Source: Verrucomicrobiota bacterium (GTDB taxonomy: Bacteria; Verrucomicrobiota; Verrucomicrobiia; Limisphaerales; Palsa-1400). Taken from it: DNA of 64,000 bases. A model generated the notes under the pieces. The model saw only the letters and a program-made list of their open reading frames with translations, was not told the DNA's origin and did not search any database. Where the stretch lies: NCBI GenBank assembly GCA_049510745.1, contig JBEKYR010000001.1:255920-319919 (forward strand), written 5' to 3'. The translations under genes were made by a program, and so were the position numbers. This document shows, one piece after another, positions 19,792-57,745 of the stretch (its first letter is position 1; the number at the start of each line of letters is the position of its first letter).

Positions 19792-19850
19792 GGAATCGAA
19801 GCCTTCCCCGTCGAGGTGGAGGTCAATTCCGGCTGGGGGGATACGGTAAT
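19792..19850 (+). pseudogene. comM: comM 5' fragment 1 (codons ~12-31)
   Basis: GIEAFPVEVEVNSGWGDTVM then diverges to AL*; matches 24965-25024. Confidence 0.9.
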
Positions 19851-19905
19851 GGCGTTATGAAAAGAACTGGTCTTGCGCGGGAAAGCGGATTACAGTTGTT
19901 TCGTT

Positions 19906-20121
19906 ATGCAGACAGTCGCCATTGAAATAGCGCAGGCCACACTCGCGGATCTGCTCAAACAGGTCGCGGACGGCGAGGAGTTCACCATCACACAGCATGG
20001 CCAGCCGAAGGCGAAGCTTTCGGCAGTCTCGTCGCGCAGGCGCCCGCAAGCGCGAGTGGGGAGTTTGCCGGGGGGAATATGGCTCTCGCCGGATTTTGAC
20101 GGGCCGGTGGATGACTTATAG
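19906..20121 (+). CDS. Phd/YefM family antitoxin (last few residues possibly lost)
   Basis: AQATLADLLKQVADGEEFTITQHGQPKAKL...GSLPGGIWLSPDFD. Confidence 0.85.
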   Translation: MQTVAIEIAQATLADLLKQVADGEEFTITQHGQPKAKLSAVSSRRRPQARVGSLPGGIWLSPDFDGPVDDL

Positions 20122-20293
20122 CTTTGAACTGCTGCCTGTTTCCTGTCTGCATTTGAATCAACTGGCGGCACTCCCGTTTCATCACCGTGATCCATTTGAC
20201 CGGTTGTTGATCGCCCAGGCACTTGCTGAAGACATGACCATTGTCAGGCGCGACACGGCATTTTCGCAATACCCGGCGAAAATTATCTGGTAA
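20122..20293 (+). pseudogene. vapC: VapC/PIN toxin, C-terminal remnant only
   Basis: FELLPV...LPFHHRDPFDRLLIAQA...; the N-terminal D-containing motif is absent. Confidence 0.85.
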
Positions 20294-20442
20294 TTGCGTT
20301 GGTTGTCGGGCCTTTCATGGTCAAGTGATCGGGGATGGGGGCGACTTCTTAAATTGATCAGGTTGTCTGAATCGCAGTCAGCCTGATTCGTGCGTTGACG
20401 CATACGCGATCTCTCGTTAGCCTTCGCTCGAACCATGTCGCA

Positions 20443-22002
20443 ATGAACACTCGGACCGCTCGCACCGGCTCAATCGCCGATCTCGTCCGCCCGTTGCTGG
20501 CCTGCCTGCTGCTGATCGGGCCGGCGGCGCGGGCCGGAATCGTCATCACCAATTTCACCGGAACGAATGTGATCCGCATTCTGCCCGCCGGCGATTCGAT
20601 CACCGATGACTGCGAGGTCGTGGGCGCGTGGCGGAAACCGCTCCAGCCGCTGCTCGACAGCAATCACATCCCCTTCATCTTCATCGGCCGCAACGTTTCC
20701 TCCCCGACCCTGCCCTATTTCACCAAGACCAAACACGAAGGCTACTGTGGCGCTGTCGTCGCTCCTCCGGGCGTGTTCGGGGCTTACTCTTACGCGCAAG
20801 CAAACAATTACACCGAGAAGACCCTTTCCGATGCCTTGAAGACCACGGTCGTCACCAACCCAAACATCGTCCTCGTGTTGATCGGCGCCAACGACATCGG
20901 CCGCGGGCGCGATCCCTACCACACGGCCTACATCGACATGACCAACCTGCTCAACATCATCCTCACAAACGTCCCTGCCGCGAATGTCATTTTCACGAAG
21001 ATTACCTCGCTCAGCAATGCCAGCCTCGGCTACGCCACGTATTCGACCAATGTCCCGATCTACAACAACGCCCTCGAACAGATGGTCAACCAGAAGCGGG
21101 CCGAGGGCCTGAATGTCACCCTGGCTGACATGTTTTCGGTCAACCCCTATGGGACCGCTTTCTACCTGAGCGATCATCTCCATGCCAACGCAGCGGGCTT
21201 GACCAATATCGCCAGGGAATGGTTCACGCGCATCCAAACCCTCATCACCGGCACCAACCAGATCACCGCCGCCCTCATCAGCGCAGGCGCGACCTGGTCG
21301 TATTCCGACACCGGGACCGATCTGGGCACCAACTGGACGCAACCTTTCTACGACGACAGCGCTTGGGCCAGCGCGCCGGCGCGATTCGGTTACGGCGAGC
21401 CGGTTCCCGAGACCCCGCTCAGCTTCGGGTCCAGCTCCACCAACGTCAACCCGACGACCTATTTCCGGACGAAGTTTGTCGTGCCGTGGAACGAAAATTT
21501 CACGAACCTCAATTTCCGCCTCTCGCAAACGGGCGGCGCGGTCGTCTGGCTCAACGGCGTCGAAGCCTACCGCACCAACCTCCCGGCCGGGCCAATCACC
21601 TATTCCACCCTCGCCACCGCGAACATCGGCAACGAAAACGAATACATCCTCTTCCCCACCAATCTGGCGCTGACGTTGCCGCCGGGAACCAACGTCATCG
21701 CGGTGGAAGTCCACCAAAGCGCTCTCACCAGACAGAACCTCGGCTTCGATTTCGAGTTGCTCGGGGGCGCCTTCGTGCTTCCCAACCCAACCCTCACGGC
21801 CTCCCTCGCCGGCAACAACATTTCCCTGACCTGGCCGCTGACCAACTGCAGCGCCTTCACTCTTTACTCTTCGGCCACGCTTGTTCCTCCAAACTGGCAG
21901 CCTTTCTCATCCAGTCTCTTCCAGACCAACAACGGCCAGATCACCGCCCCGATCACTCCCGGCCCCGGCTCCGCCTTCTTTCGACTCCAGCTTGGTCAAT
22001 AA
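20443..22002 (+). CDS. Secreted SGNH/GDSL hydrolase with beta-sandwich and Verrucomicrobia-type C-terminal domains
   Basis: GDSIT, IGANDI, DHLHAN; VIAVEVHQ; SAFFRLQ. Confidence 0.85.
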   Translation: MNTRTARTGSIADLVRPLLACLLLIGPAARAGIVITNFTGTNVIRILPAGDSITDDCEVVGAWRKPLQPLLDSNHIPFIFIGRNVSSPTLPYFTKTKHEGYCGAVVAPPGVFGAYSYAQANNYTEKTLSDALKTTVVTNPNIVLVLIGANDIGRGRDPYHTAYIDMTNLLNIILTNVPAANVIFTKITSLSNASLGYATYSTNVPIYNNALEQMVNQKRAEGLNVTLADMFSVNPYGTAFYLSDHLHANAAGLTNIAREWFTRIQTLITGTNQITAALISAGATWSYSDTGTDLGTNWTQPFYDDSAWASAPARFGYGEPVPETPLSFGSSSTNVNPTTYFRTKFVVPWNENFTNLNFRLSQTGGAVVWLNGVEAYRTNLPAGPITYSTLATANIGNENEYILFPTNLALTLPPGTNVIAVEVHQSALTRQNLGFDFELLGGAFVLPNPTLTASLAGNNISLTWPLTNCSAFTLYSSATLVPPNWQPFSSSLFQTNNGQITAPITPGPGSAFFRLQLGQ

Positions 22003-22110
22003 TTGCACCCCTGCGCGGAAATGATTTTTGGCGACCGGCGGCAGGCGCCATCCGTGTCAGTCCTCACTATTTGCTCTGACCGGCCGCGTAATCGTCCTCA
22101 CGGTTAATCC

Positions 22111-22284
22111 GCCTTCTCCAAAGGAGGGCAAAAACCGTATTGCCCTTGCGCCCCCGTTCGCCCAACACCCCCCCATGCTGGCGCGTGTCCTGTCCGCTGC
22201 GGTCAATGGCATCGAAGCCTTCCCCGTCGAGCTGGAGGTCAATTCCGGCTGGGGGATACGGTCATCGTGATTGTCGGCCTGCCC
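22111..22284 (+). pseudogene. comM: comM promoter plus 5' fragment 2 (to ~codon 37, -1 frameshift in G run)
   Basis: TTGCCC 22140, ATG 22175, MLARVLSAAVNGIEAFPVELEVNSGWG..VIVIVGLP. Confidence 0.93.
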
Positions 22285-22304
22285 GCGCTTTCACCAGCCT
22301 TCGT

Positions 22305-22622
22305 TCAAATCACGTCAATCAGATGAGTTGTCATATATATTTCTAGTTGATGGAAGCGAGACTTCAGGCCCTCTTTGAAGTCGCGGGAGAACTCCCGGTG
22401 TTCCACGAGGTCTTCGACATCAATAATGACACGCATTAAATCATCTGAATAGACGTCTTCCTCATGCCGCCAGCGCCCTCGAATGACCTGAGTTTCCCAC
22501 GAAACCGCGCCGAAATGATTCTCCAATTCAAGAAGCGTGTCGGCAATCAGGGCGTCAGGCACCGCTTGGCCGTCATTGAACCGCAGTGGCAGGAGTATCT
22601 CGTAACGACGTGAGGCGCTCAT
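22305..22622 (-). CDS. Small hypothetical protein, downstream gene of a TA-like pair
   Basis: MSASRRYEILLPLRFNDG...; overlaps the upstream partner. Confidence 0.7.
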   Translation of the reverse strand: MSASRRYEILLPLRFNDGQAVPDALIADTLLELENHFGAVSWETQVIRGRWRHEEDVYSDDLMRVIIDVEDLVEHREFSRDFKEGLKSRFHQLEIYMTTHLIDVI

Positions 22623-22794
22623 ACGTGGCAGGACCTTCGACGGTAAAATGGAAACTTTCCCCAGCAAGAGAGGCCAAAGCCGCTTCCGGCACCATCACCT
22701 CGCCCGTGGCCCAACTCTTGCCCGGGAAGCGTCTGGCGATGTAACCGAGCGCCCTTCGTTTGGATTCTTCATCGGCAAATCGTATGATGACCAT
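22573..22794 (-). CDS. Small hypothetical protein, upstream gene of a TA-like pair
   Basis: MVIIRFADEESKRRALGY...; preceded by TTGCCA-17-TATGCT-6-ATG (22801-22829). Confidence 0.7.
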   Translation of the reverse strand: MVIIRFADEESKRRALGYIARRFPGKSWATGEVMVPEAALASLAGESFHFTVEGPATYERLTSLRDTPATAVQ

Positions 22795-22845
22795 GATTGG
22801 AGCATAATGGCCTTTGCGAACTTTGGCAAGCCTGCGTGAACAACC

Positions 22846-23098
22846 CAAAACCGCATTGCCCTTGCGCCCGCCCCACGCGCAAGCGTCATCTTGACAATTT
22901 GTTCACTTGTCGCCCAACATTCCGTCCATGCTGGCGCCTGTCCTGTCCGCTGCCTTGTCCGCCATAGCGCCGGGAAGCGCGACGGCGGATGTCAACGGCA
23001 TCGAAGCCTTCCCCCGTCGAGGTGGAGGCGAGGAAATTGACATGGCGAAGGCCAAGGGGCAGGAATCCGTCAAGCGGGAGTTGGAGATCGCGGCAGGC
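22846..23098 (+). pseudogene. comM: comM promoter plus fragment 3 (5' end joined to codons ~190-212)
   Basis: ATG 22928; 36-bp insert; after VEVE it jumps to EEIDMAKAKGQESVKRELEIAAG, matching 25498-25570 (~500-bp deletion). Confidence 0.93.
22954..22989 (+). repeat. 36-bp REP-like hairpin element
   Basis: CTTG-TCCGCC ATA GCGC CGGGAA GCGC GAC GGCGGA. Confidence 0.8.
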
Positions 23099-23119
23099 AC
23101 AAAAAATGGCTTCTTTTGG

Positions 23120-23157
23120 TTTGCCATTTGGCATGGCAAATGGCATGGTTATTGGAA
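23120..23157 (+). promoter_or_regulatory. Promoter with overlapping palindromic operator
   Basis: TTGCCA-17-CATGGT-8-ATG; inverted repeats TTTGCCAT/ATGGCAAA and TGCCATTTG/CAAATGGCA. Confidence 0.65.
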
Positions 23158-23409
23158 ATGGAAGCCGTTATTACGATGGATAAATTTGGACGCATGGTTC
23201 TTCCCAGGCCAATGCGGAAGGCGCTGCAGATATCCCGGCCCGCCGCATTCAAGGCGGAGGTCATGGGCAACAAAGTGGAGCTTACTTTGGTCGCCCCGGA
23301 GCGAAGCGCGGTATTGAAAAAGCGGCGCGGTCTTCTAGTTGTTTCAACCGGCGGGCGAAAGTTTAACGCGGCTGAGGCGGTAAGCGCCATGCGCGAGGAG
23401 CGCTTCTGA
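23158..23409 (+). CDS. AbrB/MazE-fold antitoxin
   Basis: ITMDKFGRMVLPRPMRKAL, an AbrB-type N-terminus. Confidence 0.82.
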   Translation: MEAVITMDKFGRMVLPRPMRKALQISRPAAFKAEVMGNKVELTLVAPERSAVLKKRRGLLVVSTGGRKFNAAEAVSAMREERF

Positions 23410-23526
23410 TTACTGTTGCATTTACAGGCTGCGCGCCGGGGAGCTGCGAAACGCATTTTCACCATTAACGTCCGGCACTTTCAAATTTTCGCCCCTGACC
23501 TGAGAAGCATCATCTCGCTACCGTAG
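23410..23526 (+). pseudogene. PIN toxin, C-terminal remnant
   Basis: Manual translation LLLHLQAARRGAAKRIFTINVRHFQIFAPDLRSIISLP*; resembles the PIN T-x-N-x-R-H-F end; no N-terminus. Confidence 0.75.
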
Positions 23527-23552
23527 GCTCGGAACATTTTTCCACGCCTTGC

Positions 23553-23846
23553 GCAAAAACCGCATTGCCCTTGCGCCCGCCCCACGCGCGAGCGTCATCT
23601 TGACAATTTGTTCACTTGTCGCCCAACATCCCCTCATGCTGGCGCGTGTTTTGTCCGCTGCCTTGTCTGCCATCTTGTCCGCCAAAGCTCCGCCGGAAGC
23701 GGCGGCGGAAGCGCCGGGAAGCGCGACGGCGGAGGCCAACGGCATCGAAGCCTTCCCCGTCGAGGTGGAGGTCAATTCCGGCTGGGGGATACGACCGTGG
23801 TCATCGTCGGCTTTGCCGGATACGGCGGTAAAGAAATCGCGCGACC
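23553..23846 (+). pseudogene. comM: comM promoter plus 5' fragment 4 (to ~codon 46, compensating -1/+1 frameshifts)
   Basis: ATG 23636; 72-bp nested insert; ends ...LPDTAVKKSRD. Confidence 0.93.
23662..23733 (+). repeat. Nested pair of 36-bp REP-like elements
   Basis: Outer element CTTGTCTGCCAT|AGCGCC...GGCGGA is interrupted by an inner copy at 23674-23709. Confidence 0.8.
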
Positions 23847-23866
23847 AGGGCTTGATACGAAACCCA

Positions 23867-24097
23867 TCACGCCGTTTTCGATGAACGCCCCTTTGCCGGT
23901 TCCACGAGTTTGATTTGCTGCGCGTTGAGGATTTTGAAATGTCCTCCCTCGTCGTACAGCACGACCGTCTGGCGGTCGGGACTGACCATCAAATAATCAG
24001 TGTGGGCGACAACGAAGGATTGTTGGTTGCCCAAGACAATCCGAACCGGCTTAAATGGGTCGGCCTGCATCAATCCTTTGATCTCATCAGCAATCAT
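23867..24097 (-). CDS. Small PVC-type hypothetical protein (PFxPxRIxL motif)
   Basis: MIADEIKGLMQADPFKPVRIVL...; promoter TTGCCT-17-TATGTT-6-ATG (24104-24132). Confidence 0.75.
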   Translation of the reverse strand: MIADEIKGLMQADPFKPVRIVLGNQQSFVVAHTDYLMVSPDRQTVVLYDEGGHFKILNAQQIKLVEPAKGRSSKTA

Positions 24098-24172
24098 TGG
24101 CCGAACATAGTCGAGGATTGCGCGAAAGGCAATCTTCAAACCGCTGGATTTGCGCTGTTATGGGCATGGGCA

Positions 24173-24347
24173 CAAAAACCGCATTGCCCTTGCGCCCGCG
24201 TTGGCCCAACATCCCCCCATGCTGGCGCGTGTCCTGTCCGCTGCCTTGTCCGCCCTAGCGCCGAAAAGCGCGACGGCGGAGGTCAATGGAATCGAAGCCT
24301 TCCCCGTCGAGGTGGAGGTCAATACAGGCTGGGGTGACACAACCGTC
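24173..24347 (+). pseudogene. comM: comM promoter plus 5' fragment 5 (to codon 31)
   Basis: ATG 24219; 36-bp insert; ...NTGWGDTTV then diverges to ALITSISP. Confidence 0.93.
24245..24280 (+). repeat. 36-bp REP-like hairpin element
   Basis: CTTGTCCGCCCTAGCGCCGAAAAGCGCGACGGCGGA; removal restores GCT GCG GTC exactly. Confidence 0.85.
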
Positions 24348-24508
24348 GCACTAATTACGTCGATTTCGCCTATTTCATGTCCGCCGTTTCTCGTTCCGGA
24401 AATTCCCCGGTGTTACCCAGTTCAAAGTGAGGACTCCTGCGGACAGAACTTACTAAAGCTAGGCACCCAAGTCCCCCTCTGATATTTGAAAATACACAAG
24501 CCATCTTA

Positions 24509-24820
24509 ATGAGCCACATCGAACCAAAGCATATCCCGTTTGCTGTATCTCTGTTGCCATTCTTCGGCTTTGGTATTGCTCTCCCAGTCACGGTTCAAGA
24601 TTGGTATCACGGTCGGTTGATGCACGGAGATGGGATGGCCTTTTTGGTTGGATTGGTAATCGTTGCTGCGTGGGAGTGGGCGATTCTTCTGAGCGTCAAA
24701 TCGAAGAAAAGGCGAGGACAGGAGCGGCTCCTAGGACGAGAGCTTAGTTCATGGCATTGGGCGCCACCTGTTACTTTCGTGACAGGAGTCGGATGTGGTC
24801 TGATGTTTTTAGTCAGATGA
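24509..24820 (+). CDS. Small three-TM hypothetical membrane protein, lower GC
   Basis: Three hydrophobic segments; ATG start; fills the cassette. Confidence 0.55.
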   Translation: MSHIEPKHIPFAVSLLPFFGFGIALPVTVQDWYHGRLMHGDGMAFLVGLVIVAAWEWAILLSVKSKKRRGQERLLGRELSSWHWAPPVTFVTGVGCGLMFLVR

Positions 24821-24895
24821 GTCAGGGGTCGCTCCTTTGTCTGAAAAGGGGTCACTTTCCGTTCGGCCTTCCCCAAACGGGAGAAAAAATCCGCA

Positions 24896-24931
24896 TTGCC
24901 CTCGCGCCTTCATTCCCCCAACATCATGCCC
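24896..24931 (+). promoter_or_regulatory. Putative leaderless comM promoter
   Basis: TTGCCC-17-CAACAT-7-ATG; conserved with 17-nt spacing in fragments 2 and 5. Confidence 0.55.
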
Positions 24932-26458
24932 ATGCTCGCGCGTGTTCTGTCCGCTGCGGTCAATGGGATTGAAGCCTTCCCCGTCGAGGTGGAGGTCAAT
25001 TCCGGCTGGGGCGATACCACCGTCGTCATCGTCGGGTTGCCGGATACGGCGGTCAAGGAATCGCGCGACCGCGTCAGCACCGCCCTGACCAATTCCGGGT
25101 TCAAATTTCCCATGGGCCGGACCACCATCAACCTGGCCCCGGCGGATGTGCGCAAGGAGGGGCCGAGTTTCGATCTGCCCATCGCCATCGGGATGCTCGC
25201 AGCCAGCGACCAACTCATGTCCGATCTCACGGACCATTTCGTCATGGTGGGCGAACTGGCGTTGACCGGGCAGGTGCGGCCCGTCAAAGGCGTCCTGCCC
25301 GTCGCCTGGCGGGCGCGCGCGGAGAAAATGACCGGCGTTATCGTGCCGGTGGAAAACGCGGCCGAGGCGGCGGTGGTGGAAGGGTTGCAGGTCATCCCGG
25401 TGGAGAATTTGCGCCAGGCGGCCGGTTTTCTCGAAGGGGAAATCAAAATCGCGCCCACGCAAGTCGATCTGACCAAAGTTTTTGACCAGGCCTACGACGA
25501 AGAGATCGACATGGCGGAGGTCAAGGGCCAGGAATCGGTCAAGCGCGCTTTGGAAATCGCGGCGGCGGGCGGGCACAATTTGCTGCTCATTGGCCCGCCC
25601 GGCACCGGCAAATCCATGCTGGCCAAACGGCTGACCACCATTCTGCCCCCGTTGACGCTGGAGGAGGCTCTGGAGACAACCAAGATTCACAGCATTGTGG
25701 GACTGCTCAAACCCGGACAGGCGCTGGTCACGCGCCGTCCCTTCCGCACCCCGCATCACACCGCCAGCGACGCCGGGTTGCTGGGCGGCAACGTCAACCC
25801 GACTCCCGGCGAAATTTCCCTGGCCCATCACGGCGTGTTGTTCCTGGATGAATTGCCCGAATTCAAACGCGGCGTCCTCGAGACAATGCGCCAGCCGATC
25901 GAGGAAGGCCGCGTGACCATCTCGCGCGCGGCGGGCACCATGACCTTCCCAGCACAATTCATGTTGGTGGCAGCCATGAATCCAACGCCGGACGGAAAAA
26001 TGCCGGGAGAGTCTCGCAGCTCTCCTCGCGAGATTCAGAATTACTTGGGACGCATTTCTGGCCCGTTGCTCGACCGTATTGATTTGCATGTGGAAGTGCC
26101 GCAAGTGAAATTCCGCGAGATCAGCAGCGAACGGACGGGGGAAGATTCTGCCACCATCCGCGAGCGAGTGGTCGCGGCCCGAAGAAGGCAGCAGGCCCGT
26201 TTCGCCAACAAGCGTGCGGTGACCTGCAATGCCCGGATGGGACCGCGGGAATTGAAAAGCTATTGTGCGCTGGATGAGACGACCAAAGAACTGCTCAAGT
26301 TTGCCATGGCCGATCTCAATTTGAGCGCCCGAGCGTACGACCGTATCCTGAAAGTCGCCCGCACTATCGCCGATCTGGCTGGCTCCGAGAACATTGTCGG
26401 CGATCACATTGCCGAAGCGATCCAATATCGGTCCCTTGATCGCCAGTTCTGGACGTGA
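24932..26458 (+). CDS. comM: YifB/ComM Mg-chelatase-like AAA+ ATPase, intact
   Basis: IVGLPDTAVKESRDR, INLAPADVRKEGPSFDLPIA, GPPGTGKS, LFLDELPEF, GPLLDRID, SARAYDRILKVARTIAD. Confidence 0.97.
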   Translation: MLARVLSAAVNGIEAFPVEVEVNSGWGDTTVVIVGLPDTAVKESRDRVSTALTNSGFKFPMGRTTINLAPADVRKEGPSFDLPIAIGMLAASDQLMSDLTDHFVMVGELALTGQVRPVKGVLPVAWRARAEKMTGVIVPVENAAEAAVVEGLQVIPVENLRQAAGFLEGEIKIAPTQVDLTKVFDQAYDEEIDMAEVKGQESVKRALEIAAAGGHNLLLIGPPGTGKSMLAKRLTTILPPLTLEEALETTKIHSIVGLLKPGQALVTRRPFRTPHHTASDAGLLGGNVNPTPGEISLAHHGVLFLDELPEFKRGVLETMRQPIEEGRVTISRAAGTMTFPAQFMLVAAMNPTPDGKMPGESRSSPREIQNYLGRISGPLLDRIDLHVEVPQVKFREISSERTGEDSATIRERVVAARRRQQARFANKRAVTCNARMGPRELKSYCALDETTKELLKFAMADLNLSARAYDRILKVARTIADLAGSENIVGDHIAEAIQYRSLDRQFWT

Positions 26459-26474
26459 ACGACACCAGCCAGCG

Positions 26475-26731
26475 TCAGGCTGGGTTGACCGTGAAACTCT
26501 CCTGAGTCGGATCAAATCCAAGCAAAGCCACAACCCGCTCAAAGTGACTGGGATGTGGCTGGCACCGATTTGTCTCCCAGCCCCAAAGGGTTTTGACGCT
26601 CACCCCCAGTTCTTCGGCGCATTCCTTCCGGTTTTTCCTCAATTCCAGTCGCCGTTTCCTGATTCGTTGCCCCAGGGTGAGGGGAACTGCCGGTGCTAAA
26701 ATGGCAATGAATGGGGGTTCGTTGCCTTTGG
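26475..26731 (-). pseudogene. C-terminal half of a double-HTH (XRE) protein, paralogue of 57123-57662
   Basis: PKGNEPPFIAIL...RRLELRKNRKECAEELGVSVKTLWGWET aligns with 57215-57375. Confidence 0.85.
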
Positions 26732-27013
26732 ATGAAGACTAGGGAGTGTTGCCAGCGCGGCCAGAAGCGGAACAGGCTAACCCAAAGCAGTCGGTCAGCG
26801 GAGTGGAGTTTGGGTTTGAACGTCTGCCGTTTGAGCACGGCGAGTTGATGTGGGAGCGCCAGATTTTGAAGCACGAGCCGGGATTGGGATTGGAGTCCGG
26901 AGAGCAGGGAGCGGAGAAGCGCGAAGAAAATATCAAGCATGACGAGGCCGACTTTGGCCGATCTTATTGAAGAACCAACGTTTTCGAAGGATTATGGAGT
27001 TTTCGCTACCCAC
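26732..27013 (-). mobile_element. Truncated IS (integrase-core/IS481-like): left end plus transposase N-terminus
   Basis: Terminus TGTGGGTAGCGAAAACTCC at 27013; ...VLQNLALPHQLAVLKRQ..PKLHSADRLLWV..W; truncated at 26732. Confidence 0.7.
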
Positions 27014-31263: not shown

Positions 31264-31573
31264 CGTGTCTCCAGGCGCGCTATCGCTCCCCAACCCATCT
31301 CGAGCAGTTTGACGGGTAATGCCGGGGCGACCCCGGGGCGGGCCGCCGACAACCCGTCCGGCACCCCCCCCCGGCGGAGATGCCAATCCGCGCAACGGCG
31401 AGAATCAAGACAGCAGACTCTGCCGGAAAAGGGCAAGTTTTTCTCATTTTCTGCAAGTTTTATGCGAGCATCCACGCATTCCCAGCCAACAAGCAACTGA
31501 CGTGCCAAGTGCGCTGTGCGCGACTGCAATGGCCTATGTCGCGTCCCGGATTTCTATGAGAGAGATTCCGGCG

Positions 31574-32122: not shown

Positions 32123-32385
32123 AAACCAATGAATCGCAGTGACTTGGGTCTAGCCTCGCCGCTGCGGTTCGCTCCGTTTCATTTCCACCCAGTTTGTCTC
32201 AAAACACAAGGCGAGGCTCGCTCCAGCCGCGGGCATCGAGTTGGTTGCGCGGATAATCACGACCTCAAAATGCAAACCCAGATCGCGCAGAACGCCTTTT
32301 CACTTCGCACTCAACGAGCTTTGCTGCAACGCCATGCAGAACGGGCTTGCAGCGACACTGCCATCCTGATTGTATCACGGCAAGC

Positions 32386-34446: not shown

Positions 34447-34476
34447 GAATTGGCACAGGATTAGCTGACTGCTCTT

Positions 34477-42460: not shown

Positions 42461-42484
42461 GTTGGGTTTCCTTTATCTCAATGC

Positions 42485-44065: not shown

Positions 44066-44074
44066 ATCCTTGCG

Positions 44075-47404: not shown

Positions 47405-47414
47405 CGGCGGTGGA

Positions 47415-48062
47415 TCATTGGAGAAGCGCGTAAGCCAGGATATTGACGTTCACCTTCTGGCTGTTTTTGATTTCGTTGCCGCCGCAACAACAGCAGCCGT
47501 GCATGGTGGCGGTGTCGTTGAGGCCGTCCTGCGAATAGATCAGCACGATTTTCCCAGCAATGGTCAGGCCCAGCAGCTTGGCGTCTCCGCCATGGCTCAT
47601 GTCAAGGCGATCAACGATGAAAACAGTGTGGAAAATCGGGTGGTCCATCGGGACGTCGGCCAATTTGCGGTCCGGGAAAATGGTTTCAATCTCATGCGTG
47701 AACGAATCGCCCCATTCCTTGCTGCTGCATCCGGCGCTGGCCAGCAGGAACCCGCCTTTTTCCAGGTAGAGCTTCAGGTTTTTGCGTTCATCGTCTGTCA
47801 AAGTGAAGGCCCCCTCGCCCGTCATCACGGCGAAAGGAAAGTGGAAGACCTCGCTCTCGCCCAGCTTCACTGGCTTGAACTTGCGGGACGTGTTGATGCT
47901 CGTTTCACCGGCGACGGTGGAGAGGAATTCCTCGCTGAAACAGACCGAACTTTTGGTGCCGGCGTAAATCAGGTTCGCGCATTCGATCTCTTCGCCGGCG
48001 GGGACGCGGAGGCCGGGCCACAGCAGCAGAACTGTCAATAGCATGAATTTTTTCATGGTCAC
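47415..48062 (-). CDS. DUF4159-like protein
   Basis: FPFAVMTGEG, YLEKGGFL, DHPIF, VNILAYAL. Confidence 0.82.
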   Translation of the reverse strand: MTMKKFMLLTVLLLWPGLRVPAGEEIECANLIYAGTKSSVCFSEEFLSTVAGETSINTSRKFKPVKLGESEVFHFPFAVMTGEGAFTLTDDERKNLKLYLEKGGFLLASAGCSSKEWGDSFTHEIETIFPDRKLADVPMDHPIFHTVFIVDRLDMSHGGDAKLLGLTIAGKIVLIYSQDGLNDTATMHGCCCCGGNEIKNSQKVNVNILAYALLQ

Positions 48063-50767: not shown

Positions 50768-52935
50768 AGCAACCCTTCCTGCCGGCGCCACCACCACTCG
50801 GTGCCGAGCAAAACCAACAGGGCTGTGAGCGTCCACCATCGGTCCCACAGAGGCCGCTGGCGATGCAACAATTCACGCCGCGCTTCCCAATGTTTGACAA
50901 CATCGGCCATCCGCGGAACGTCCGAACCTCCGAGGACCGCCCCGCCGGAGACTTCCGCCAGCTTGCGCATCGTTTCAGGGTCGGCGCTCAACTCGCGGTT
51001 TTCGACCGAGGCGCTTACCACTTCGATGCTCTGCGTCAGTTCCGGAGGGTTTCCGACGTTGTTTGTCAGCGACACACGGTAGGTTCCAGGGGGAAATGGA
51101 CCGGCTTGGGCGACGAACGATTCGCCACGCGGGCGGGGTTCGACCTCGGTGGATTTGCCGCCGCCGGAAATGATCAAGCGCGGTTGGTAAACAGCGCGAT
51201 CCAGGTGGCGCGTAGAAATGAGGAATTGCATGGGCTGTTCGCTCGTATAGTAACGGCGCGCGCTGGAAAGAGCCACGTCGGAGCCTGGCAGGAACTGGCT
51301 GCCGCCCAAAAGCCATTGCAGGAGGGAGACCCAAAAGCGCTCATAAGCGGCCTCGCTCTCCTCCTGGCCCGTTTCGCGGAAGGCCCACCGCCAAAGACCG
51401 CCGGCATTGAGGCTCAGGGTCTTGCCCTGGCCGTAACGCTGGTAGGCCAGCAGCACGGGACCATCCTGCTCCGCCGAGCCGGCCAAAACAATGGCCAGCG
51501 GTTTTTCACCGAGCGTGATGGCGGCTTGGTCCAGCGCCGGAAGGCGGTCGAGCAATTCTTCCACGGTGCCCGCCGCGCCCAAGTCAAATATAGGATTATC
51601 CCGTCCCGCCTCGGTCGGGCGGAGCTTGACGGAGGAGGAAACACCGCTGCCCCAGGCGACCGGCTCGAACTTGGCCAGCGCGGGGAAACGCCCGCCATAG
51701 GACTTGCCGCGGGCGAACACCAGGCTGCCTCCTTTTTTGGAGACGAAATCCGTCAACAGGCCCTCGGTGTTATTGTCGAAAAACGCGTCGGCGTCGCGGC
51801 CCAGGACGATGACATCAAAACTGTCCATGTCGTCGGCTGTGCGCGGAAAAAGGTCCGATTCCAGGCGCGCTTCCCCGCCGGGGGCGGAAAGGACGGCGAC
51901 ATAGCGCTGGGCGTTGAGGCGATACACAGCGGTCAGATCGACTTTTGGGTTGCGCTTGAGGCATTGCACCAGAAACTTGGTGTCCCAGGAGGGCTGGCCT
52001 TCGGCCACCAGCACGCGCACCTTCTTGCCGACGGAGCGGAGGAAAATCGCGCGTTCATTATTGGCGGTGTCCGATTCCTCCGGCTGCGGTGGCACTCGAA
52101 AAACGTAGCGTTGTTCGCCCTGTTCCGGCGCAATGACACGCCTGGAGAAACGGGCCGCGCCGTTGGTATCGGGCGTGACTTCTTTGGAATCGATGACTTT
52201 GTCGTCCTTGAGGAGATCCACTTTGAAACTGCGGTTGGGATAGCCAGCCTGGTGCAACGTCGCTGTCAATTCGACTTCCGCGCCGCTAAAGGCGAGCGCT
52301 TCGGCGGAGGCGGTCTCGATCCACAAATCGTGGCGCGAAACCGGCCCGCCAAGTGTCCAGGTCCAGAGCGGAACGGAACGGGCCAAAGCCAGTTCCGCCG
52401 CGTCCAAGGCGCCGGGAGAAGTGGCCTGGCCGTCGGACGCCAGCAGAACACCCGCCTGCGCCTGGGCATCGCCCAATTCAGACACCACACTCATGAGAGC
52501 GCGGCCGAGATCAGTCGCGTCACCGCGCGCCTCCGTGTCCGACAGCCGGGACAACTCGGCCGGTTGCGCTTCCCGGTCGAACCGGCGGACATCCAGCTCG
52601 AAATCCTTGCTCAACGCGGCCAGGGTGGAAGCATTGGTGACGACCCGCAAGGCGGCGCCAAGGCGTGAATCGCCGGCGGCGGCGTCATGGGTGGCCATGC
52701 TGGCGGAAGTGTCAAACAGAATGACGAGTTTGGGCTTGCCTGTCTTTTCGCGCGGGAGCAACGCCTGGGGATTGAGCATGATCCAGAGCAATCCGCCGAG
52801 GATCAGCGCCCGCAACGCCACCGTGCTGCCGCCTTGTTTCTCGCGCCGCCATCGGAACGCCGCCAAAGCGAACAGGCATAACGCGATGACCGCAATCCAG
52901 CGCCCGTTCCATGGAGGCAGGCAAAGCCAGTTCAT
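50764..52935 (-). CDS. vWA plus glutamine-amidotransferase-like membrane protein
   Basis: DTSASM MIDAS, LASDG, YGQGK, EWWWRR. Confidence 0.85.
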   Translation of the reverse strand: MNWLCLPPWNGRWIAVIALCLFALAAFRWRREKQGGSTVALRALILGGLLWIMLNPQALLPREKTGKPKLVILFDTSASMATHDAAAGDSRLGAALRVVTNASTLAALSKDFELDVRRFDREAQPAELSRLSDTEARGDATDLGRALMSVVSELGDAQAQAGVLLASDGQATSPGALDAAELALARSVPLWTWTLGGPVSRHDLWIETASAEALAFSGAEVELTATLHQAGYPNRSFKVDLLKDDKVIDSKEVTPDTNGAARFSRRVIAPEQGEQRYVFRVPPQPEESDTANNERAIFLRSVGKKVRVLVAEGQPSWDTKFLVQCLKRNPKVDLTAVYRLNAQRYVAVLSAPGGEARLESDLFPRTADDMDSFDVIVLGRDADAFFDNNTEGLLTDFVSKKGGSLVFARGKSYGGRFPALAKFEPVAWGSGVSSSVKLRPTEAGRDNPIFDLGAAGTVEELLDRLPALDQAAITLGEKPLAIVLAGSAEQDGPVLLAYQRYGQGKTLSLNAGGLWRWAFRETGQEESEAAYERFWVSLLQWLLGGSQFLPGSDVALSSARRYYTSEQPMQFLISTRHLDRAVYQPRLIISGGGKSTEVEPRPRGESFVAQAGPFPPGTYRVSLTNNVGNPPELTQSIEVVSASVENRELSADPETMRKLAEVSGGAVLGGSDVPRMADVVKHWEARRELLHRQRPLWDRWWTLTALLVLLGTEWWWRRQEGLL

Positions 52936-55025
52936 CGCACGGCCTCCAGATTTCTTTCCCGCGCGGCCATTTTACCCGGAAGGCTCCCGCGCGAAGTTCG
53001 AAGCGGCCGACGCCAAAACGCCAGCAAGAGCATCTCCAAACCCAGCAACGCCGCCGCCGCGCCGGCCAGCAGAGGCCAGAGTTGGCGCGTTTTGCCGGCG
53101 AGCAATAAATCCTCCTCGTCCTGCGCGACCGTGACGGTGGAGCGGCCGCCCGCCTTGAGGCTTTCCAAGGCAATCGGCCGGGTGTCGCTCTCGCGCGGGT
53201 CAACGTTGACGATGCCGTAAGAAACAATCGTTTCGCCTTGTTTGATCGGATAAGCGCCTGGTAGTTGCGCACTGGGCAACGCCAGACGCGTCGTGCGGCC
53301 GCTGGCCATGACCTGGGCCGCAAAAGGATGGCCTTGCGGATCGGTTACGGTCACAGCGGTTTCGCCTGCGGACGCGACATTGAGCACCCAGGCCGAACCG
53401 GGAGTGACAGCCTGTTCATCCGAGGCGCGTCGGAGTTTGCGCAGCAATTCATGAATCATGGCCGGGAACATCGGACTGCCAATGAAATCACTGCCGTCCG
53501 GCGTAAATGGAAGATTGGCGAAGACGGCGGATCCCTGTCCCATGGCGCCAAGCGTCAACGCGGGAGAGCCGTCGGGATAGGAAAGCAGCACTTCGTCGCG
53601 ACGGCTCTCCACCAGTTCAACCTGATAATGCCGGCGAAAACGCAACGCGCCGAGGTCCTCAGCCTCGGTGTCGGCAAAGAGTTTCGCGTGGCCGGCCGCC
53701 ACAGCATCGCCCGTCTCTGAATTAACCGTGTGCCGTAGATGAAACGGCGGATCAAGCGCGGGCGAGGCCAGATCCGGCGCGGTCGGCCCGTCCAGAAACA
53801 CCATCAGATGCGCGCCTTCCTTGACTCGACGGGCCATAATGTCGAGGGCTTCCTGGCTTGGAAGAGCGGGGGCCACCAGCACAAACACGTCCGATGTTTC
53901 CAAAACGCCGCGATCCGCGTCCTGAGTGCGTCGCCGGATCAGCGTGAGACCCGGCGCGGCTTCGGGCGATGGAACCAAGGCGCGGCTGATGTAAAAAGCG
54001 GCGCTTTGCGGGTCGGATTCATCGGCGTCGCTGACCAAAAGAATGCGCAGGGCCTGGCTGACGTGAACCAGCAGCCAACGGGTGTTGTCCTCGATCAGAT
54101 CGTCCGGTTCGAGCGAAAGCTTGGCGGCGAAGGAGCCTGGATGCGGGACGGAGATGTTGAAAGCGGCCTCGGTGGTGCCAAAGGCCGGGACCTTCACGCG
54201 GGTTTCGCGGGTGAATTCCCCCAATTCGAGCCGGACGGTTTCTTCGCGGGGGCGCGGCGTGCAATTGAGAATGGCGCCTGTGATTTCAAGCGGTTCGCCC
54301 ATGACCGGTTCGGATGGCGAGAGATGGGCGGCGGTGATGGCCACGTTGTCAACCGCTTGTTGCGTCACGGGACGGAGGCGGCAAACCACACCGCCCGGCA
54401 ATTCGGGGACGCCCTGCCAGTTGGACTTTTGGAAATCGCTGAAAACGTAAATCGTGCCCGCGCCGCCAAGCATTTTGGCGGCCAAAGCCAGCGCGGCGCC
54501 GGGATCGCCGTTTTCATAAGTCGCCTGTGTTTTGACCAATTCTTCGTGCAGCGCGGGGATGTTGCGCGAAAGGGCCGGCAGAAGCGGACGCGGCGTGGCG
54601 CCTTCGAGAATAACAGCGGCCTCGGAACCGGAATCCAGCCCGCGCAAAATGTCAGCCGCTTCGGCCTGAGCGCGGGCGAAAAGAGGCACACCTTGCTGAA
54701 CCGCGCGCATTGACAGGGAAGCGTCAATGATAAGCACGACGCGTTTGGCGGCCTCGGCACCGAGCGCCGCCCCCGCGGGCTTGAGAAAGGGACGGGAAAA
54801 CAGGAGCACCAATGCCAGAACGGCCAGACAGCGAATAGCCAGCAACAGGATGGTGCGCAGGCGATGAACAGACTGCTGGCCAGCGCAGGCCTCCAGCAGG
54901 AACTGAAAGGGCGGGAAGGCAATGCGGCGAGGCCGGGCGCGCGTCAGGAAGTGGATCAGCACCGGCAACCCAACCGCCGCCAGCCCGGCCAGCATCCAGG
55001 GATTTGCAAAAGCAGGCCAGTTCAT
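52932..55025 (-). CDS. BatA-domain/vWA protein
   Basis: FANPWML...PVLIHFL, IIDASLSM, FSDFQ. Confidence 0.88.
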   Translation of the reverse strand: MNWPAFANPWMLAGLAAVGLPVLIHFLTRARPRRIAFPPFQFLLEACAGQQSVHRLRTILLLAIRCLAVLALVLLFSRPFLKPAGAALGAEAAKRVVLIIDASLSMRAVQQGVPLFARAQAEAADILRGLDSGSEAAVILEGATPRPLLPALSRNIPALHEELVKTQATYENGDPGAALALAAKMLGGAGTIYVFSDFQKSNWQGVPELPGGVVCRLRPVTQQAVDNVAITAAHLSPSEPVMGEPLEITGAILNCTPRPREETVRLELGEFTRETRVKVPAFGTTEAAFNISVPHPGSFAAKLSLEPDDLIEDNTRWLLVHVSQALRILLVSDADESDPQSAAFYISRALVPSPEAAPGLTLIRRRTQDADRGVLETSDVFVLVAPALPSQEALDIMARRVKEGAHLMVFLDGPTAPDLASPALDPPFHLRHTVNSETGDAVAAGHAKLFADTEAEDLGALRFRRHYQVELVESRRDEVLLSYPDGSPALTLGAMGQGSAVFANLPFTPDGSDFIGSPMFPAMIHELLRKLRRASDEQAVTPGSAWVLNVASAGETAVTVTDPQGHPFAAQVMASGRTTRLALPSAQLPGAYPIKQGETIVSYGIVNVDPRESDTRPIALESLKAGGRSTVTVAQDEEDLLLAGKTRQLWPLLAGAAAALLGLEMLLLAFWRRPLRTSRGSLPGKMAARERNLEAVR

Positions 55026-55927
55026 CGTGTATTCTCGCGGGCCAAAAAGCAGTTCCGCAGAAAGCGGCAGGGATTATCGGACGTTCTCGCCAGATACCAA
55101 TCACTGCCGCGCGCCTGACAGTTGGACTTCATTTCGGTCAGAAAGCGGTCGAAACGACGTCGATAAAGCGACCGGACGACGTCAGGTTCGGCATTGAACC
55201 AGCCCGATCCCTCCGTCTCGAGAAACCGCGCCGAAACCACCTCCGGCAATTCCAGTTCCTCCGGATGCACAATTTGAAACAGCATCACGTCAAAGCGGGA
55301 GCGCCGGAAAAGATCGACGGCTTTCCAGAAGGCAGCGTCGGCGTCCAGGAAATCGCTAAAAACCGCCAGCACACCACGGCGTTTGATGCGGGCAAACACC
55401 TGCTGGAGGCAGGCCCCCAAATCCGTTCGGCCCTGGGCACGGGCGCGCTCCAGGTTGTCCAATACGCGATTCATCTGCGCCCAGGAAGCGGCGGCCGGCA
55501 GATGGCTGTGCAATTGGTCGTCAGCCAGAGAAAGCCCCACTTCATCCCCCTCGCGCAGGACGAGGTAGCCCATGGCGGCGGCCAGGCGTGCGGCGTGTTC
55601 AAGTTTGGAATGAGTGGTAATGGTGGCTCCGGAGAATTCCATCGAACCGCTTTTGTCCACGACCAGATAAGTGAGCAAATTGCGCTCGGCGTCATAGAGG
55701 CGCACATAGTGGCGATCGGTGCGGGCGAAGACTTTCCAGTCCACCAGCCGGATGTCATCACCCGGAGAATACTCGCGGTAATCAGCAAATTCAACCGCCG
55801 TTCCTCGGAAGTGGGATTTGTGGGGGCCGGCGAAAGTGCCCTCGGCCGCCCCCCGGGGTGTCAAACGAACCTGGCCCAGCGCTTCCATCGCCGCGATGTC
55901 CAGGAAGCGATGTCGCAAAGTCGGCAC
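55022..55927 (-). CDS. DUF58 protein
   Basis: EFADYREYSPGDDIRLVDWK, DKSGSM, SDF. Confidence 0.93.
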   Translation of the reverse strand: MPTLRHRFLDIAAMEALGQVRLTPRGAAEGTFAGPHKSHFRGTAVEFADYREYSPGDDIRLVDWKVFARTDRHYVRLYDAERNLLTYLVVDKSGSMEFSGATITTHSKLEHAARLAAAMGYLVLREGDEVGLSLADDQLHSHLPAAASWAQMNRVLDNLERARAQGRTDLGACLQQVFARIKRRGVLAVFSDFLDADAAFWKAVDLFRRSRFDVMLFQIVHPEELELPEVVSARFLETEGSGWFNAEPDVVRSLYRRRFDRFLTEMKSNCQARGSDWYLARTSDNPCRFLRNCFLARENTR

Positions 55928-55932
55928 AAGCT

Positions 55933-56949
55933 TCAGCGCGCGGCGGCGGGTTCGCGGACGGTTTCGAGCAAATGTCTGACAATCGCGTCGGACTCGATGC
56001 CTTCTCCCAGCGCGTTGTAGTTGGGGATAATCCGGTGGCGCAGGACGGGGCCGGCCATGCGCTGCAGGTCGCTGTTCTCCGGTGAGGGACGCCCATCAAG
56101 AAGCGCGCTGGCCTTGGCGGCGGTGACCAGGTGTTGCGTCGCGCGCGGCCCCGCCCCCCAGGCCACGTAGCGCCGCACGTAATCATCCGCCTCACCGGTC
56201 TTGGGCCGGCTCGCGGTGGTGAGCGCGACGGCGTGTTCGAGCACTGGGCGCGAAACGGGCATTTGGTCCACAATCTCAATGAACTTGCGAAAGTCCTCCT
56301 TTTTTGCCAGCGGCGCCAGGCCGCTGGATTGCGCCCGAATCGAACGACCGGCAATTTCCACTTCGTCGGCGCGCGCGGGATAATCAACGTGGATGCTGAA
56401 CATGAAGCGATCCAATTGCGCTTCCGGGAGCGGATAAGTGCCCTCCTGCTCAATCGGGTTTTGCGTCGCCACGACGATGAACGGCGGTTCCAAGCGGTAA
56501 GTCTTGCCGTTGACGGTGACGGCCAATTCCTGCATCGCCTCCAGCAGCGCGGCTTGGGTTTTGGGCGGCGTCCGGTTGATTTCGTCTGCCAGAATCAGAT
56601 TGGCGAAAACCGGCCCGCGATGGAACACAAGATCGCGGCGGCGTCCCGATTCGTCGCTCTGCAAGATCTCGGTGCCGGTGATATCGGCGGGCATGAGGTC
56701 CGGGGTGAATTGTATGCGGCGGAAATCCCATCCGAGCAAATCGGCCAGCGCCTTAACCATCATGGTCTTGGCCAATCCGGGGACGCCAATGACCAGCATG
56801 TGGCCGCCGGAGAGAAGGCCAGTCAGAAGCAGGCGGACGACTTCCTGTTGGCCGATGAGCACACCGGCCATTTGTTTTTGGAGGGCTTGGCAACATTCAC
56901 GCAGGCGGGCCACGTCCGCTCCAGCGTCTTTGATTTCGTTCGGGTTCAT
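55933..56949 (-). CDS. moxR: MoxR family AAA+ ATPase
   Basis: GVPGLAKT, RIQFTPDLMPADI, DEINRTPPKTQ, TQNPIEQEGTYPLPEAQLDRF. Confidence 0.95.
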   Translation of the reverse strand: MNPNEIKDAGADVARLRECCQALQKQMAGVLIGQQEVVRLLLTGLLSGGHMLVIGVPGLAKTMMVKALADLLGWDFRRIQFTPDLMPADITGTEILQSDESGRRRDLVFHRGPVFANLILADEINRTPPKTQAALLEAMQELAVTVNGKTYRLEPPFIVVATQNPIEQEGTYPLPEAQLDRFMFSIHVDYPARADEVEIAGRSIRAQSSGLAPLAKKEDFRKFIEIVDQMPVSRPVLEHAVALTTASRPKTGEADDYVRRYVAWGAGPRATQHLVTAAKASALLDGRPSPENSDLQRMAGPVLRHRIIPNYNALGEGIESDAIVRHLLETVREPAAAR

Positions 56950-57122
56950 ACCTCGTCTTGGGATACAGTTCTAACAAACCTTGTAGTCCCTTTGTCGGCC
57001 ACTGTCAATGATAGTCCGCGCGTGCGAATAGGGAAATTCAGATTCCCAGAACTATGCAGGCAATGCCGACATGATCGTTCCATCGCTCAATCAACGGGCG
57101 CCTCAGCAGGACCAGAAGGCCG

Positions 57123-57662
57123 TTAAAAGTCGCCCATCCGCTTGACGTTTGCCGGGCCAACTTCGAGGAACTTTTCAATTCCCTTCCGAAAAAGGGCAGT
57201 GGGCTGACGCTGACCGGTCTCCCAGCCCCAAAGGGTTTTGACGCTGACCCCCAGTTCTCTGGCGCATTCCTTCCGGTTTTTCCTCAATTCAATGCGTCGT
57301 TTTGTGATTCCTTGCCCAAGCGTCAACGGGCCTATCCGTGCTAAAATGGCAACGAATGGGGTTTCGTTGCCTTTGGGGCCTCCGAGCGTCGGATTGGTGA
57401 ACGGATCGCACCCTAAAAACTTCACCAAACGGGGTTGATTGGCCCACGTCGGATAGACCTTGTCCCTCTCCCACAAGCTTAGGGTCAGTTGGCTAACTCT
57501 CAGCCGCCGAGCAGCTTCCGACTGGCGGATTCCTAAACTGAAACGTTGCTTTCTCAGGTGTTCTCCGATAGTCTTGGGCTGCTTTGAAACAGGAAAACTG
57601 CGAGTCCAGACGGGGGAAATGTCCTGCCTTTCCACGTTCACAGTCCTTTCACAAAAAGGCAA
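57123..57662 (-). CDS. Double XRE-HTH protein abutting the attR-like junction
   Basis: Two HTH motifs (QSEAARRLRVSQLTLSLWE; ECARELGVSVKTLWGWE); nearest start inside the island is TTG 57662. Confidence 0.75.
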   Translation of the reverse strand: MPFCERTVNVERQDISPVWTRSFPVSKQPKTIGEHLRKQRFSLGIRQSEAARRLRVSQLTLSLWERDKVYPTWANQPRLVKFLGCDPFTNPTLGGPKGNETPFVAILARIGPLTLGQGITKRRIELRKNRKECARELGVSVKTLWGWETGQRQPTALFRKGIEKFLEVGPANVKRMGDF

Positions 57663-57670
57663 CGTCGCGC

Positions 57671-57745
57671 ACGCCGGACGGCAAAATTCCTGGCGAATCG
57701 CGCAGTTCGCCGCGCGAAATCCAGTACCGCCAGTTGTGGACGTGA
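57671..57745 (+). pseudogene. comM: comM 3' remnant from codon 352; attR-like junction; two internal deletions
   Basis: TPDGKIPGESRSSPREIQ|YR|QLWT* matches 25985-26038 and the comM C-terminus. Confidence 0.9.

Follow-up and report, generated by a model that had tools for sequence, protein, structure and literature searches.

A 64-kb stretch of the genome of a Verrucomicrobiota bacterium (the window, to whose coordinates all positions below refer; the contig that bears it is C1 of that genome) carries one intact comM gene amid truncated copies of the same gene. We consider that these relics are, on balance, probably the outcome of repeated site-specific insertions into comM, in which the gene was kept or restored, relics and decayed cargo were left behind, and these later spread by homologous recombination. 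The arrangement is a real, family-wide feature, and its kind is already known, namely arrays of target-gene fragments left by integrative elements. The ComM helicase lets naturally transformable bacteria integrate heterologous DNA, and mobile elements in many pathogens knock out comM, supposedly to escape deletion by transformation. To our knowledge, the evolutionary sequel of such a disruption has so far been a matter of models.

In the course of events that we propose, several families of site-specific mobile elements would have hit comM at about residue 49, about residue 230, residue 364 and probably the 3' end. Each hit would be outlived by a lineage whose comM was intact, and the truncated copy would be displaced outward with the remains of the element or of the donor flank. 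As cycle followed cycle, 5' pieces would pile up upstream and 3' pieces downstream, a polarity that is predicted by any gene-preserving integration. The chain of events at residue 364 is largely shown, and that on the 5' side is one that we infer.

One intact comM and its polar relics

The intact comM occupies 24886-26458 (+) including a 46-nt leader. Its open reading frame (ORF) runs from a TTG at 24896 to 26458; residues are numbered after this ORF (P0001), and the probable true start, ATG 24932, is residue 13. In one uninterrupted frame, Pfam finds ChlI (1e-43), Mg_chelatase (6e-90) and Mg_chelatase_C (2e-34), and single-copy orthologues 73-93% identical to it are present in 40 of 41 genomes, which identifies it as a ComM/YifB helicase. 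An earlier note on this DNA, made from the sequence alone, had listed nine comM pieces; tblastn recovered all of them and one more, at 23030-23095. Thus, the window holds one intact gene, five 5' relics upstream, three 3' relics downstream and a piece of internal residues 202-223, all on the plus strand, with E-values from 7e-7 to 6e-81 for the 5' and 3' relics. The same units were recovered by repeat finding and by MAFFT alignment of the DNA. The 5' relics lie exclusively upstream (starts at 19792, 22130, 22846, 23555 and 24174) and the 3' relics exclusively downstream (37198, 40520 and 57671) of the sole intact gene at 24932-26458. The 46 nt preceding the ATG are present in four of the five upstream units.

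The unit without the leader is relic A (19792-19857, +; residues 24-45, E 7e-7), which abuts the start of the operon of the Pro-rich protein, mglA and mglB; its best match is the intact comM of the same-genus genome G001, 96.6% over 59 nt. Relic B (22130-22285, +) consists of the leader and residues 13 to about 52 with a frameshift (tblastn 22172-22284, residues 12-49, E 2e-12), and is 87% identical to comM of G001, G006 and G011 versus 84% to the resident gene. Relic C (22846-23095, +) has a leader with a 36-nt insert and residues 7-29 with a hairpin insert (tblastn 22910-23014), fused to residues 202-223 (23030-23095, E 2e-5). Relic D (23555-23850, +) has a leader with an insert and residues 13-59 with an expanded hairpin (tblastn 23726-23848, residues 19-59, E 6e-11), and is 90% identical to the resident comM over 114 nt. 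Relic E (24174-24374, +) has the leader and residues 13 to about 49 with a hairpin insert (tblastn 24216-24356, residues 12-46, E 1e-11), followed by a 23-nt junction motif, here called class 1, at 24352-24374. Downstream, a mini-comM relic (37198-37717, +) has its own ATG and 11 codons, then residues about 361-520, frameshifted and internally deleted (tblastn 37256-37714, residues 368-520, E 6e-81, 88% over 153 residues); its DNA is 85% identical to comM of G014 and 84% to the resident 3' part. An 84-nt scrap (40520-40603, +; DNA repeat D13) covers residues 338-365 (tblastn 40520-40600, residues 338-364, E 2e-9). The rightmost piece (57650-57724, +; repeat family D11) joins a 21-nt element arm (57650-57670) to residues 364-381 (57671-57724). 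The relics are 6-16% diverged from the resident comM, and some are nearer to comM of other genomes.

The earlier note had raised misassembly of strain variants as a doubt. Metagenome contigs from two other assemblies, L099 (2007 nt, 100% identical to 22243-24249) and L089 (2042 nt, 99.95% identical to 22965-25006), reproduce the tandem 5' array, which is therefore not an assembly artefact. This check by independent contigs covers 22243-25006, and the part from 26.5 to 57.7 kb is read from its own assembly only.

Some upstream units carry further small features. Units C and D share the 36-nt leader insert (22871-22906 and 23580-23615), which contains a perfect TTGACA, and the leader of G011 has a different insert at this position. 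Ahead of the 46-nt leader, some of the units and intact genes have the motif CCCGCYTTTCCC and then a short hairpin-like stretch (24866-24885 in the window, and in relatives); this motif may be a comM regulatory site. The comM leader was not called as a sigma-70 promoter in a consensus promoter scan, and the -35/-10 there are a reading only. The Rfam scan of 19500-27000 gave one sub-threshold chance match, and the units are not a known RNA. A hairpin of 32-36 nt like repetitive extragenic palindromic (REP) sequences is present at 22958-22989 and 24249-24280 and, expanded, at about 23677-23732 (+), inserted behind codon ~10, with the frame kept, in three comM relics (three of the five upstream units). 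Its outer stem is conserved, its internal loop is 3x3, and its inner stem covaries between copies and always pairs; relics of other genomes have the same hairpin insert with other inner stems. We rejected it as a cassette site because five further clear copies lie in this genome outside comM relics (C1:69718, C3:252965, C3:64815, C17:83309 and C20:75309).

A serine-recombinase scar at residue 364 and the mosaic comM

In genome G012, whose assembly consists of five contigs, comM residues 8-364 and 364-520 are separated by 59 kb. A 501-aa protein with Resolvase and Recombinase domains abuts the 5' half (L004:2573-4075), and a gene with two helix-turn-helix domains (HTH) starts in the 3' half. 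The metagenome locus L083 has the same arrangement, with the recombinase at 2446-3948 (Resolvase, Recombinase and a zinc ribbon below the Pfam cut-off). In G012, the non-comM arm of attL is an inverted copy of that of attR, the form to be expected of a serine-recombinase attP. The attR arm recurs with 0-3 differences in 21 nt in G012, G017, G002 and the window (57650-57670), and the window joins it to comM at the same nucleotide as G012. Moreover, the double-HTH gene (Xre/DicA-like; 57123-57716, -; HTH_31 5e-12, NCBIfam DicA 2e-14), the terminal gene of the element, stands at the same junction in G012, G017 and G002. Since both arm and HTH gene match the G012 junction, the region 57.1-57.7 kb is, as far as its sequence tells, the attR scar of a large-serine-recombinase element. 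The comM part of the scar ends after residue 381, in front of emrA. The G012-type recombinase itself gave no tblastn match in the window or elsewhere in the genome that bears the window.

By core alignment, the serine-recombinase crossover core lies in the intact comM at 25985-25990, and the breaks of the three downstream pieces are no more than a few codons away from it; the 84-nt scrap ends 3-6 nt past the crossover, without an element arm. The relics at 37.2 kb and 57.67 kb have no complete recombinase target, the central triplet being changed in the former and the left arm replaced in the latter. The start of the HTH gene lies in comM-derived DNA beyond the junction (57650-57716), and integration therefore changes the 5' end of this gene. 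In a circular form of the element, the recombinase gene would read across attP into the HTH gene. A 21-nt sequence with three differences from the element arm is found on another contig of the genome (C50:9930), which also has two tyrosine-recombinase matches.

The working comM is a mosaic about this crossover. Before 25985, it is 84-85.5% identical to comM of G017, G001 and G022, and after 25985 only 75-78%; in this latter part, its best matches are G014 (84.7%), the 37-kb relic (84.1%) and G019 (82.6%). The 54-nt attR relic has the sequence type common in the family, whereas derived positions unite the working gene and the 37-kb relic. The 3' third of the intact comM and the cargo downstream of it resemble another genus. 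Because this foreign 3' third is joined at the crossover, an intact allele was probably recombined in rather than the element excised. We infer that an intact allele with donor flanking DNA recombined into the split comM, which would have deleted the end of the element that bears the recombinase and left the opposite end in place. G017 has this layout on a smaller scale, with an intact comM followed by 4 kb, the HTH gene and then residues 360-520.

Junctions of the 5' units and the search for a recombinase

Units begin sharply 46 nt ahead of the ATG, both in the window and in most of the relics and intact genes that relatives have, and this left edge adjoins at least ten unrelated cargo ends; a subset of units shares a further motif to about -70 or -95. 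After a conserved anchor, we collected 133 distinct sequences, 54 of which are native for at least 100 nt, and most of the others break at residues 45-52, after TCAT. Among the broken ones, the class-1 motif follows in 22 and a second, 24-nt motif in 8, and a direct search found the class-1 motif in 25 distinct cassettes. This motif may mark a propagated relic lineage because degenerate comM-like sequence follows it. An ORF through the class-1 motif, sense or antisense, was rejected for want of a conserved reading frame. A second cluster of breaks lies at residues 225-234, just before Walker A, where five relics have a related motif with the break at about 231; 3' relics start at residues 221-228. 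A similar target sequence, TCAT and then CG..GG..GCC, stands at both 5'-side break sites. Although breaks cluster at about 49, about 230 and 364, the end of a single relic may fall at any point between residues 29 and 234. In the window, the vapBC unit formerly adjoined comM at residue ~223. G016 shares with the window the junction between this residue and the vapB promoter (L006 6945-7010), and the shorter relics in the window and G014 are accounted for by deletions at the microhomologies GCCGCC and CGAGG.

We suppose that elements or cassettes inserted on the 5' side after TCAT in the coding sequence, and that either a replacement leader and 5' end was brought or the gene was repaired from incoming DNA. 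The recombinase genes would subsequently have been lost. Small cassettes flanked by relics, such as toxin-antitoxin (TA) pairs and hydrolases, would persist and move mainly by homologous recombination via the comM pieces.

The window has no visible integrase, as already noted from the sequence, and PF00589 and PF00239 gave no match on the whole of contig C1. The genome has 14 PF00589, one PF00239 and seven Y1_Tnp matches, those to PF00589 and PF00239 all being on other contigs. An integron integrase is absent from this genome (best TIGR02249 score 83 bits versus a cut-off of 265, on another contig). Similarly, none of 126 ORFs in 17 arrays of relatives is a tyrosine or serine recombinase; three are transposases of insertion sequences. 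A profile search with 19 recombinase seeds over all analysed loci gave matches of three kinds at 5' or 3' ends. One is a C-terminal integrase stump of 47 residues, beside a class-1 relic in L041 and three metagenome contigs; full-length relatives of this stump, at six loci, have no comM pieces or motifs nearby. In L102, an intact comM is followed, 120 nt past its stop codon, by a 454-aa tyrosine integrase (1973-3334, -). In L112, a 100-aa ORF after the comM stop (5273-5572) has a phmmer match to a tyrosine-recombinase seed and no Pfam match. Together with relics of only the last ~40 comM residues in several genomes (e.g. G016, L006 13991-14107), L102 and L112 suggest that the 3' end of comM is a fourth hot spot. 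An ORF of L088 that was Y1-transposase-like by phmmer was rejected, having no Pfam match.

Distribution in relatives and sharing of cassettes

The 155-nt 5' unit is present in 28 of the 31 genomes of the family, with at least two copies in 19, one in 9 and none in 3. A search with whole ComM found comM in 40 of 41 relatives and extra pieces mainly within the own family; among 16 genomes of other families, only G029 has a clear relic. A pattern scan of metagenomes gave 115 loci, 112 of which were analysed; ComM matches were found in 94 of these 112, and at least two pieces in 32 of the 94. Scans of viral contigs gave no match for either the leader motif or the recombinase arm.

The relatives have variable numbers of relics with different cargo, as the earlier note had anticipated, but the conserved order mglAB-comM-emrAB on which it would have based the comparison was not found. 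Gene order around comM is unconserved even within the genus, and G001, G014 and G017 have mglA on one contig and comM on another. In G001, an emrA-MFS pair lies 3.7 kb from a B-type relic on one contig, and the intact comM is on a third contig. The congeneric G011 and G016, whose comM genes are about 95% identical, differ across the whole stretch from the MFS gene to comM. The operon next to relic A, formed by mglB, mglA and an upstream Pro/Ala-rich protein of about 570 aa with a roadblock-like C-terminus (16856-19712, -), is conserved in G001, G002 and G006 up to 19749, where synteny with G001 ends.

Several cassettes are more alike between genomes than comM is. The vapBC cassette is 91.6% identical to that of G014 versus 82.7% for comM, and a G011 cassette is 92.7% identical to a copy on our contig C5 against 80.7% for comM. 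A DUF433 pair cassette is 93.6% identical between G014 and G011, and another cassette is common to G014, G019 and our contig C6 (85-90%). Stray comM pieces lie on our contigs C5, C6 and C21, two of them in cassettes that adjoin comM in G011 and G014. Shared cassettes adjoin comM pieces but have different neighbours in each genome or genus. Apart from these, a stretch of 7.3 kb with comM in it is 99.99% identical between G022:C26 and G024:C127 (L012 6191-13530 versus L013 1-7340), although the two genomes are assigned to different genera; this points to a binning error or a very recent transfer.

Cargo between the pieces

The cargo named in the earlier note was confirmed by Pfam. Between relics A and B lie a Phd-type antitoxin with a truncated PIN toxin (19873-20293, +; PF02604 3e-7; PF01850 1e-5, at profile positions 46-118 only; NCBIfam phd_fam 5e-9) and a GDSL/SGNH hydrolase with a C-terminal beta domain (20395-22002, +; PF00657 8e-11, PF13472). 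The B cargo (22305-22797, -) comprises two small genes, known from their translations (B2, 74 aa; B1, 105 aa), and is likely a two-gene module without a Pfam or NCBIfam match. It has a promoter-like site at 22829-22801, a paralogous adjacent pair at C59:24443-24672, and counterparts 83-88% identical beside comM pieces in L024, L027 and L031. Next come vapB (AbrB-like) and a 3' stump of vapC (23102-23554, +), 91.6% identical to L007 5935-6242, where the vapB homologue precedes an intact PIN gene (Pfam 7e-6); the stretch is also 89% identical to L023 and L026. The D cargo (23867-24100, -) is a translated 77-aa ORF of unknown family, whose junction type recurs in L088, L090, L082 and L162. The E cargo (24375-24885) includes a membrane-like ORF of 103 aa (24509-24820, +) and matches no family of Pfam or NCBIfam. 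Cargo orientation is thus mixed, the B and D cargo lying on the strand opposite to the relics.

Downstream of comM, a 175-nt internal fragment of the double-HTH gene (26557-26731, -; repeat D7) is 84% identical to 57202-57376 and 86% to G002 (L022 3690-3849). It is followed at 27152-36828 by a module of two sensor kinases (-), YfiR (-), a TonB-dependent receptor (+) and a protein of eight Ig repeats (+), identified by Pfam. This module is 86-87% identical to G008:C38, G014:C10 and G044:C27, where it lies away from comM, and has no such match in the same-genus G001 and G002, only paralog-level ones of 65-69%. After the mini-comM relic come a 180-aa ORF and a 690-aa secreted protein (37814-40518, +; CHB_HEX_C_1 / Fn3_assoc in Pfam), and after the scrap an operon of MoxR, DUF58, BatA-VWA, DUF4159 and thioredoxin-HEAT proteins (40820-56949, -; Pfam). 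A 929-aa protein of this operon has 65% orthologues only in G014 and G044 and a 74% fragment in G011; any match to it is found in nine of the 31 family genomes, none of them G001 or G002. These comparisons indicate that the kinase module and the MoxR operon are horizontally acquired accessory modules, which other genera have at places away from comM, and not cassettes of a common type. Accessory DNA is indeed organised around comM, with one copy intact and the others eroding, as first supposed; the notion that all blocks are cassettes of one type does not hold, because the downstream relics differ in origin (attR scar, mini-comM, 84-nt scrap) and the large blocks are acquired modules.

Weighing the explanations

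Several observations count against repeated insertion and restoration as we describe them. In none of the genomes and metagenome loci examined did we find an element that carries an intact recombinase at the 5' hot spots; the integrase stump is the sole trace. The sharp -46 edge is not explained by repair through illegitimate joining, and suggests that cassettes have a dedicated end. In the 37-kb and 40.5-kb pieces, the break is at most four codons from the crossover and yet element arms are absent, which our scheme leaves unexplained. In G017, the 3' part of comM and its relic are 97.2% identical, and local duplication would also fit. The order of events is drawn from short segments (59 nt in relic A, 54 nt in the attR relic), and the genomes compared are draft metagenome-assembled genomes.

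With these points in mind, we also entertain, tentatively and with more doubt than trust, that in this family the comM leader and first ~50 codons are the recurring site of a cassette system without a resident integrase. Cassettes with such fragments at their ends would be taken up, stacked and exchanged across genera, either by a recombinase acting in trans or by the transformation machinery with the fragments as portable homology arms, in which case comM would be both target and part of the engine.

The single integron-like mechanism favoured in the earlier note is not borne out. No integron integrase was found, the repeated units are gene fragments with a leader rather than attC sites, and the orientation of the cargo is mixed; without IntI and with mixed orientation, the locus is not an integron. 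An active platform that only resembles one, in which a tyrosine or HUH recombinase in trans inserts cargo plus a comM 5' fragment after TCAT (~49) and so regenerates both comM and the target, seems to us unlikely. It would account for the sharp edge beside unrelated cargo ends, the two motifs after the break in 25 and 8 cassettes, the similar target sequence at the two break sites, and the small cassettes, often TA pairs, that recur in different arrays; moreover, the PF00589 and Y1_Tnp proteins of the genome might act in trans. Set against this, the 17 arrays have no recombinase linked to them, relics end at various points over residues 29-234 and include internal pieces, cargo lies both ways, the left edge is not unique (-70, -95), and the class-1 motif may be one propagated relic lineage rather than an element end.

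Accretion by homology alone, in which transformed DNA or popped-out circles integrate by RecA via comM arms with no site-specific enzyme on the 5' side, is in our view quite improbable. The polarity would follow from it, since only fragments of gene ends integrate without killing comM, and it agrees with the arrays free of recombinase, the variable length of comM homology, the microhomologies at relic deletions and the difference between G011 and G016. However, it explains neither the clustering of breaks at TCAT with the adjoining motifs nor the sharp edge beside many cargos. The choice of comM over other conserved genes would still need site-specific elements as the source of comM-linked DNA, and competence of these bacteria is presupposed.

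The two remaining explanations seem to us very unlikely. Local segmental duplication and decay without mobile elements, or a chimeric assembly of strain variants, could draw on the G017 relic, the draft state of the genomes and the imperfect binning of G022/G024, but is at odds with the two independent contigs, the divergence of the relics (some closer to comM of other genomes), the cargo, which varies from unit to unit and is met again in other genera, and the element with a recombinase gene that occupies the same position in G012 and L083. Retention of the relics as putative decoy attachment sites or as extra promoters for cassette genes would suit the conservation of leader and first ~40 codons (80-94% identical to working comM) beside decayed adjoining sequence, the one class-1 lineage kept in 25 cassettes and the three successive cargos of G014 co-oriented with a relic leader, but sits badly with the incomplete targets at 37.2 and 57.67 kb, the many 5' relics that stop before or at the break site, and the opposite-strand cargo (B, D) with its own promoter-like site.

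Comparison with known systems

Some elements, such as SXT/R391 in prfC, those with dusA-specific integrases and tRNA islands in reversed orientation, replace the 5' end of the target gene, and homology-facilitated illegitimate recombination is also a known mechanism. As with such elements, the displaced 5' fragment here lies upstream, and a new leader and 5' end would keep the gene working. They are large and encode an integrase, whereas the units here measure 0.6-2.4 kb and have none. Chromosomal integrons resemble the locus in their head-to-tail arrays of small, TA-rich cassettes with a recurring site between them and in cassettes found across taxa. The differences are that IntI and attC are missing here, the recurring site is a promoter-bearing gene fragment, and the cassettes are of mixed orientation rather than co-oriented and promoterless, the B cargo having its own promoter-like site.

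At one target gene, as for the integrative and conjugative elements ICESt and the cis-mobilizable elements (CIME) at fda and for islands at tRNA genes, tandem elements and integrase-less derivatives are found together. The ssrA islands of Dehalococcoides arose by tandem accretion at the tmRNA gene (PMC3146451). The window units, too, are bounded by direct repeats of a target-gene fragment, as in ICE/CIME and ssrA-type arrays, and integrase-less units persist. Arrays of the ICE/CIME and island kind show one precise crossover and a resident or nearby integrase, whereas here relic length varies, relics lie on both sides, and no integrase was found at the 5' arrays.

The closest counterpart of the residue-364 element may be the sr1WO phages of Wolbachia, whose large serine recombinases are reported to integrate in a Mg-chelatase-like/comM gene (PMC9203015). 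The elements agree in the target (a comM-family coding sequence), in the gene halves that flank the element and in the XRE-type HTH regulators; the element in G012 and L083, with its Resolvase and Recombinase domains (plus the weak zinc ribbon in L083) and attP inverted repeat, is likened to sr1WO by target, layout and domains. The window differs from what is given for sr1WO in having lost the recombinase and most of the element, in a whole comM with a foreign 3' third, and in the further relics around it.

In Acinetobacter, Aggregatibacter, Pseudomonas, Vibrio and others, unrelated elements have repeatedly hit comM, and the papers that describe this propose a conflict between elements and transformation (PMC4774983; PMC11472951; PMC12378983). 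The idea that an inactivated comM could be recovered by recombination was also raised in one of these texts (PMC11472951). In the cases described there, the gene is left broken, and the portions seen do not mention arrays of relics around an intact gene. Here, by contrast, one family has at least three insertion sites, and a mosaic gene and scars would record restoration. The literature text searched, to which the supplementary figures S10 and S12 of PMC4774983 did not belong, describes no intact comM flanked on both sides by relic arrays. What is notable in the present locus is the several hot spots in one competence gene, the evidence of restoration, the scars on both sides and the integrase-less cassettes across genera. 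The history of the conflict over comM seems to be legible in the locus and its relatives. If this is true, they offer concrete sites to test (attB/attP pairs, the 46-nt leader and the junction motifs), and a natural system for studying how often disrupted competence genes are repaired and whether gene fragments may act as portable recombination sites for small cassettes.

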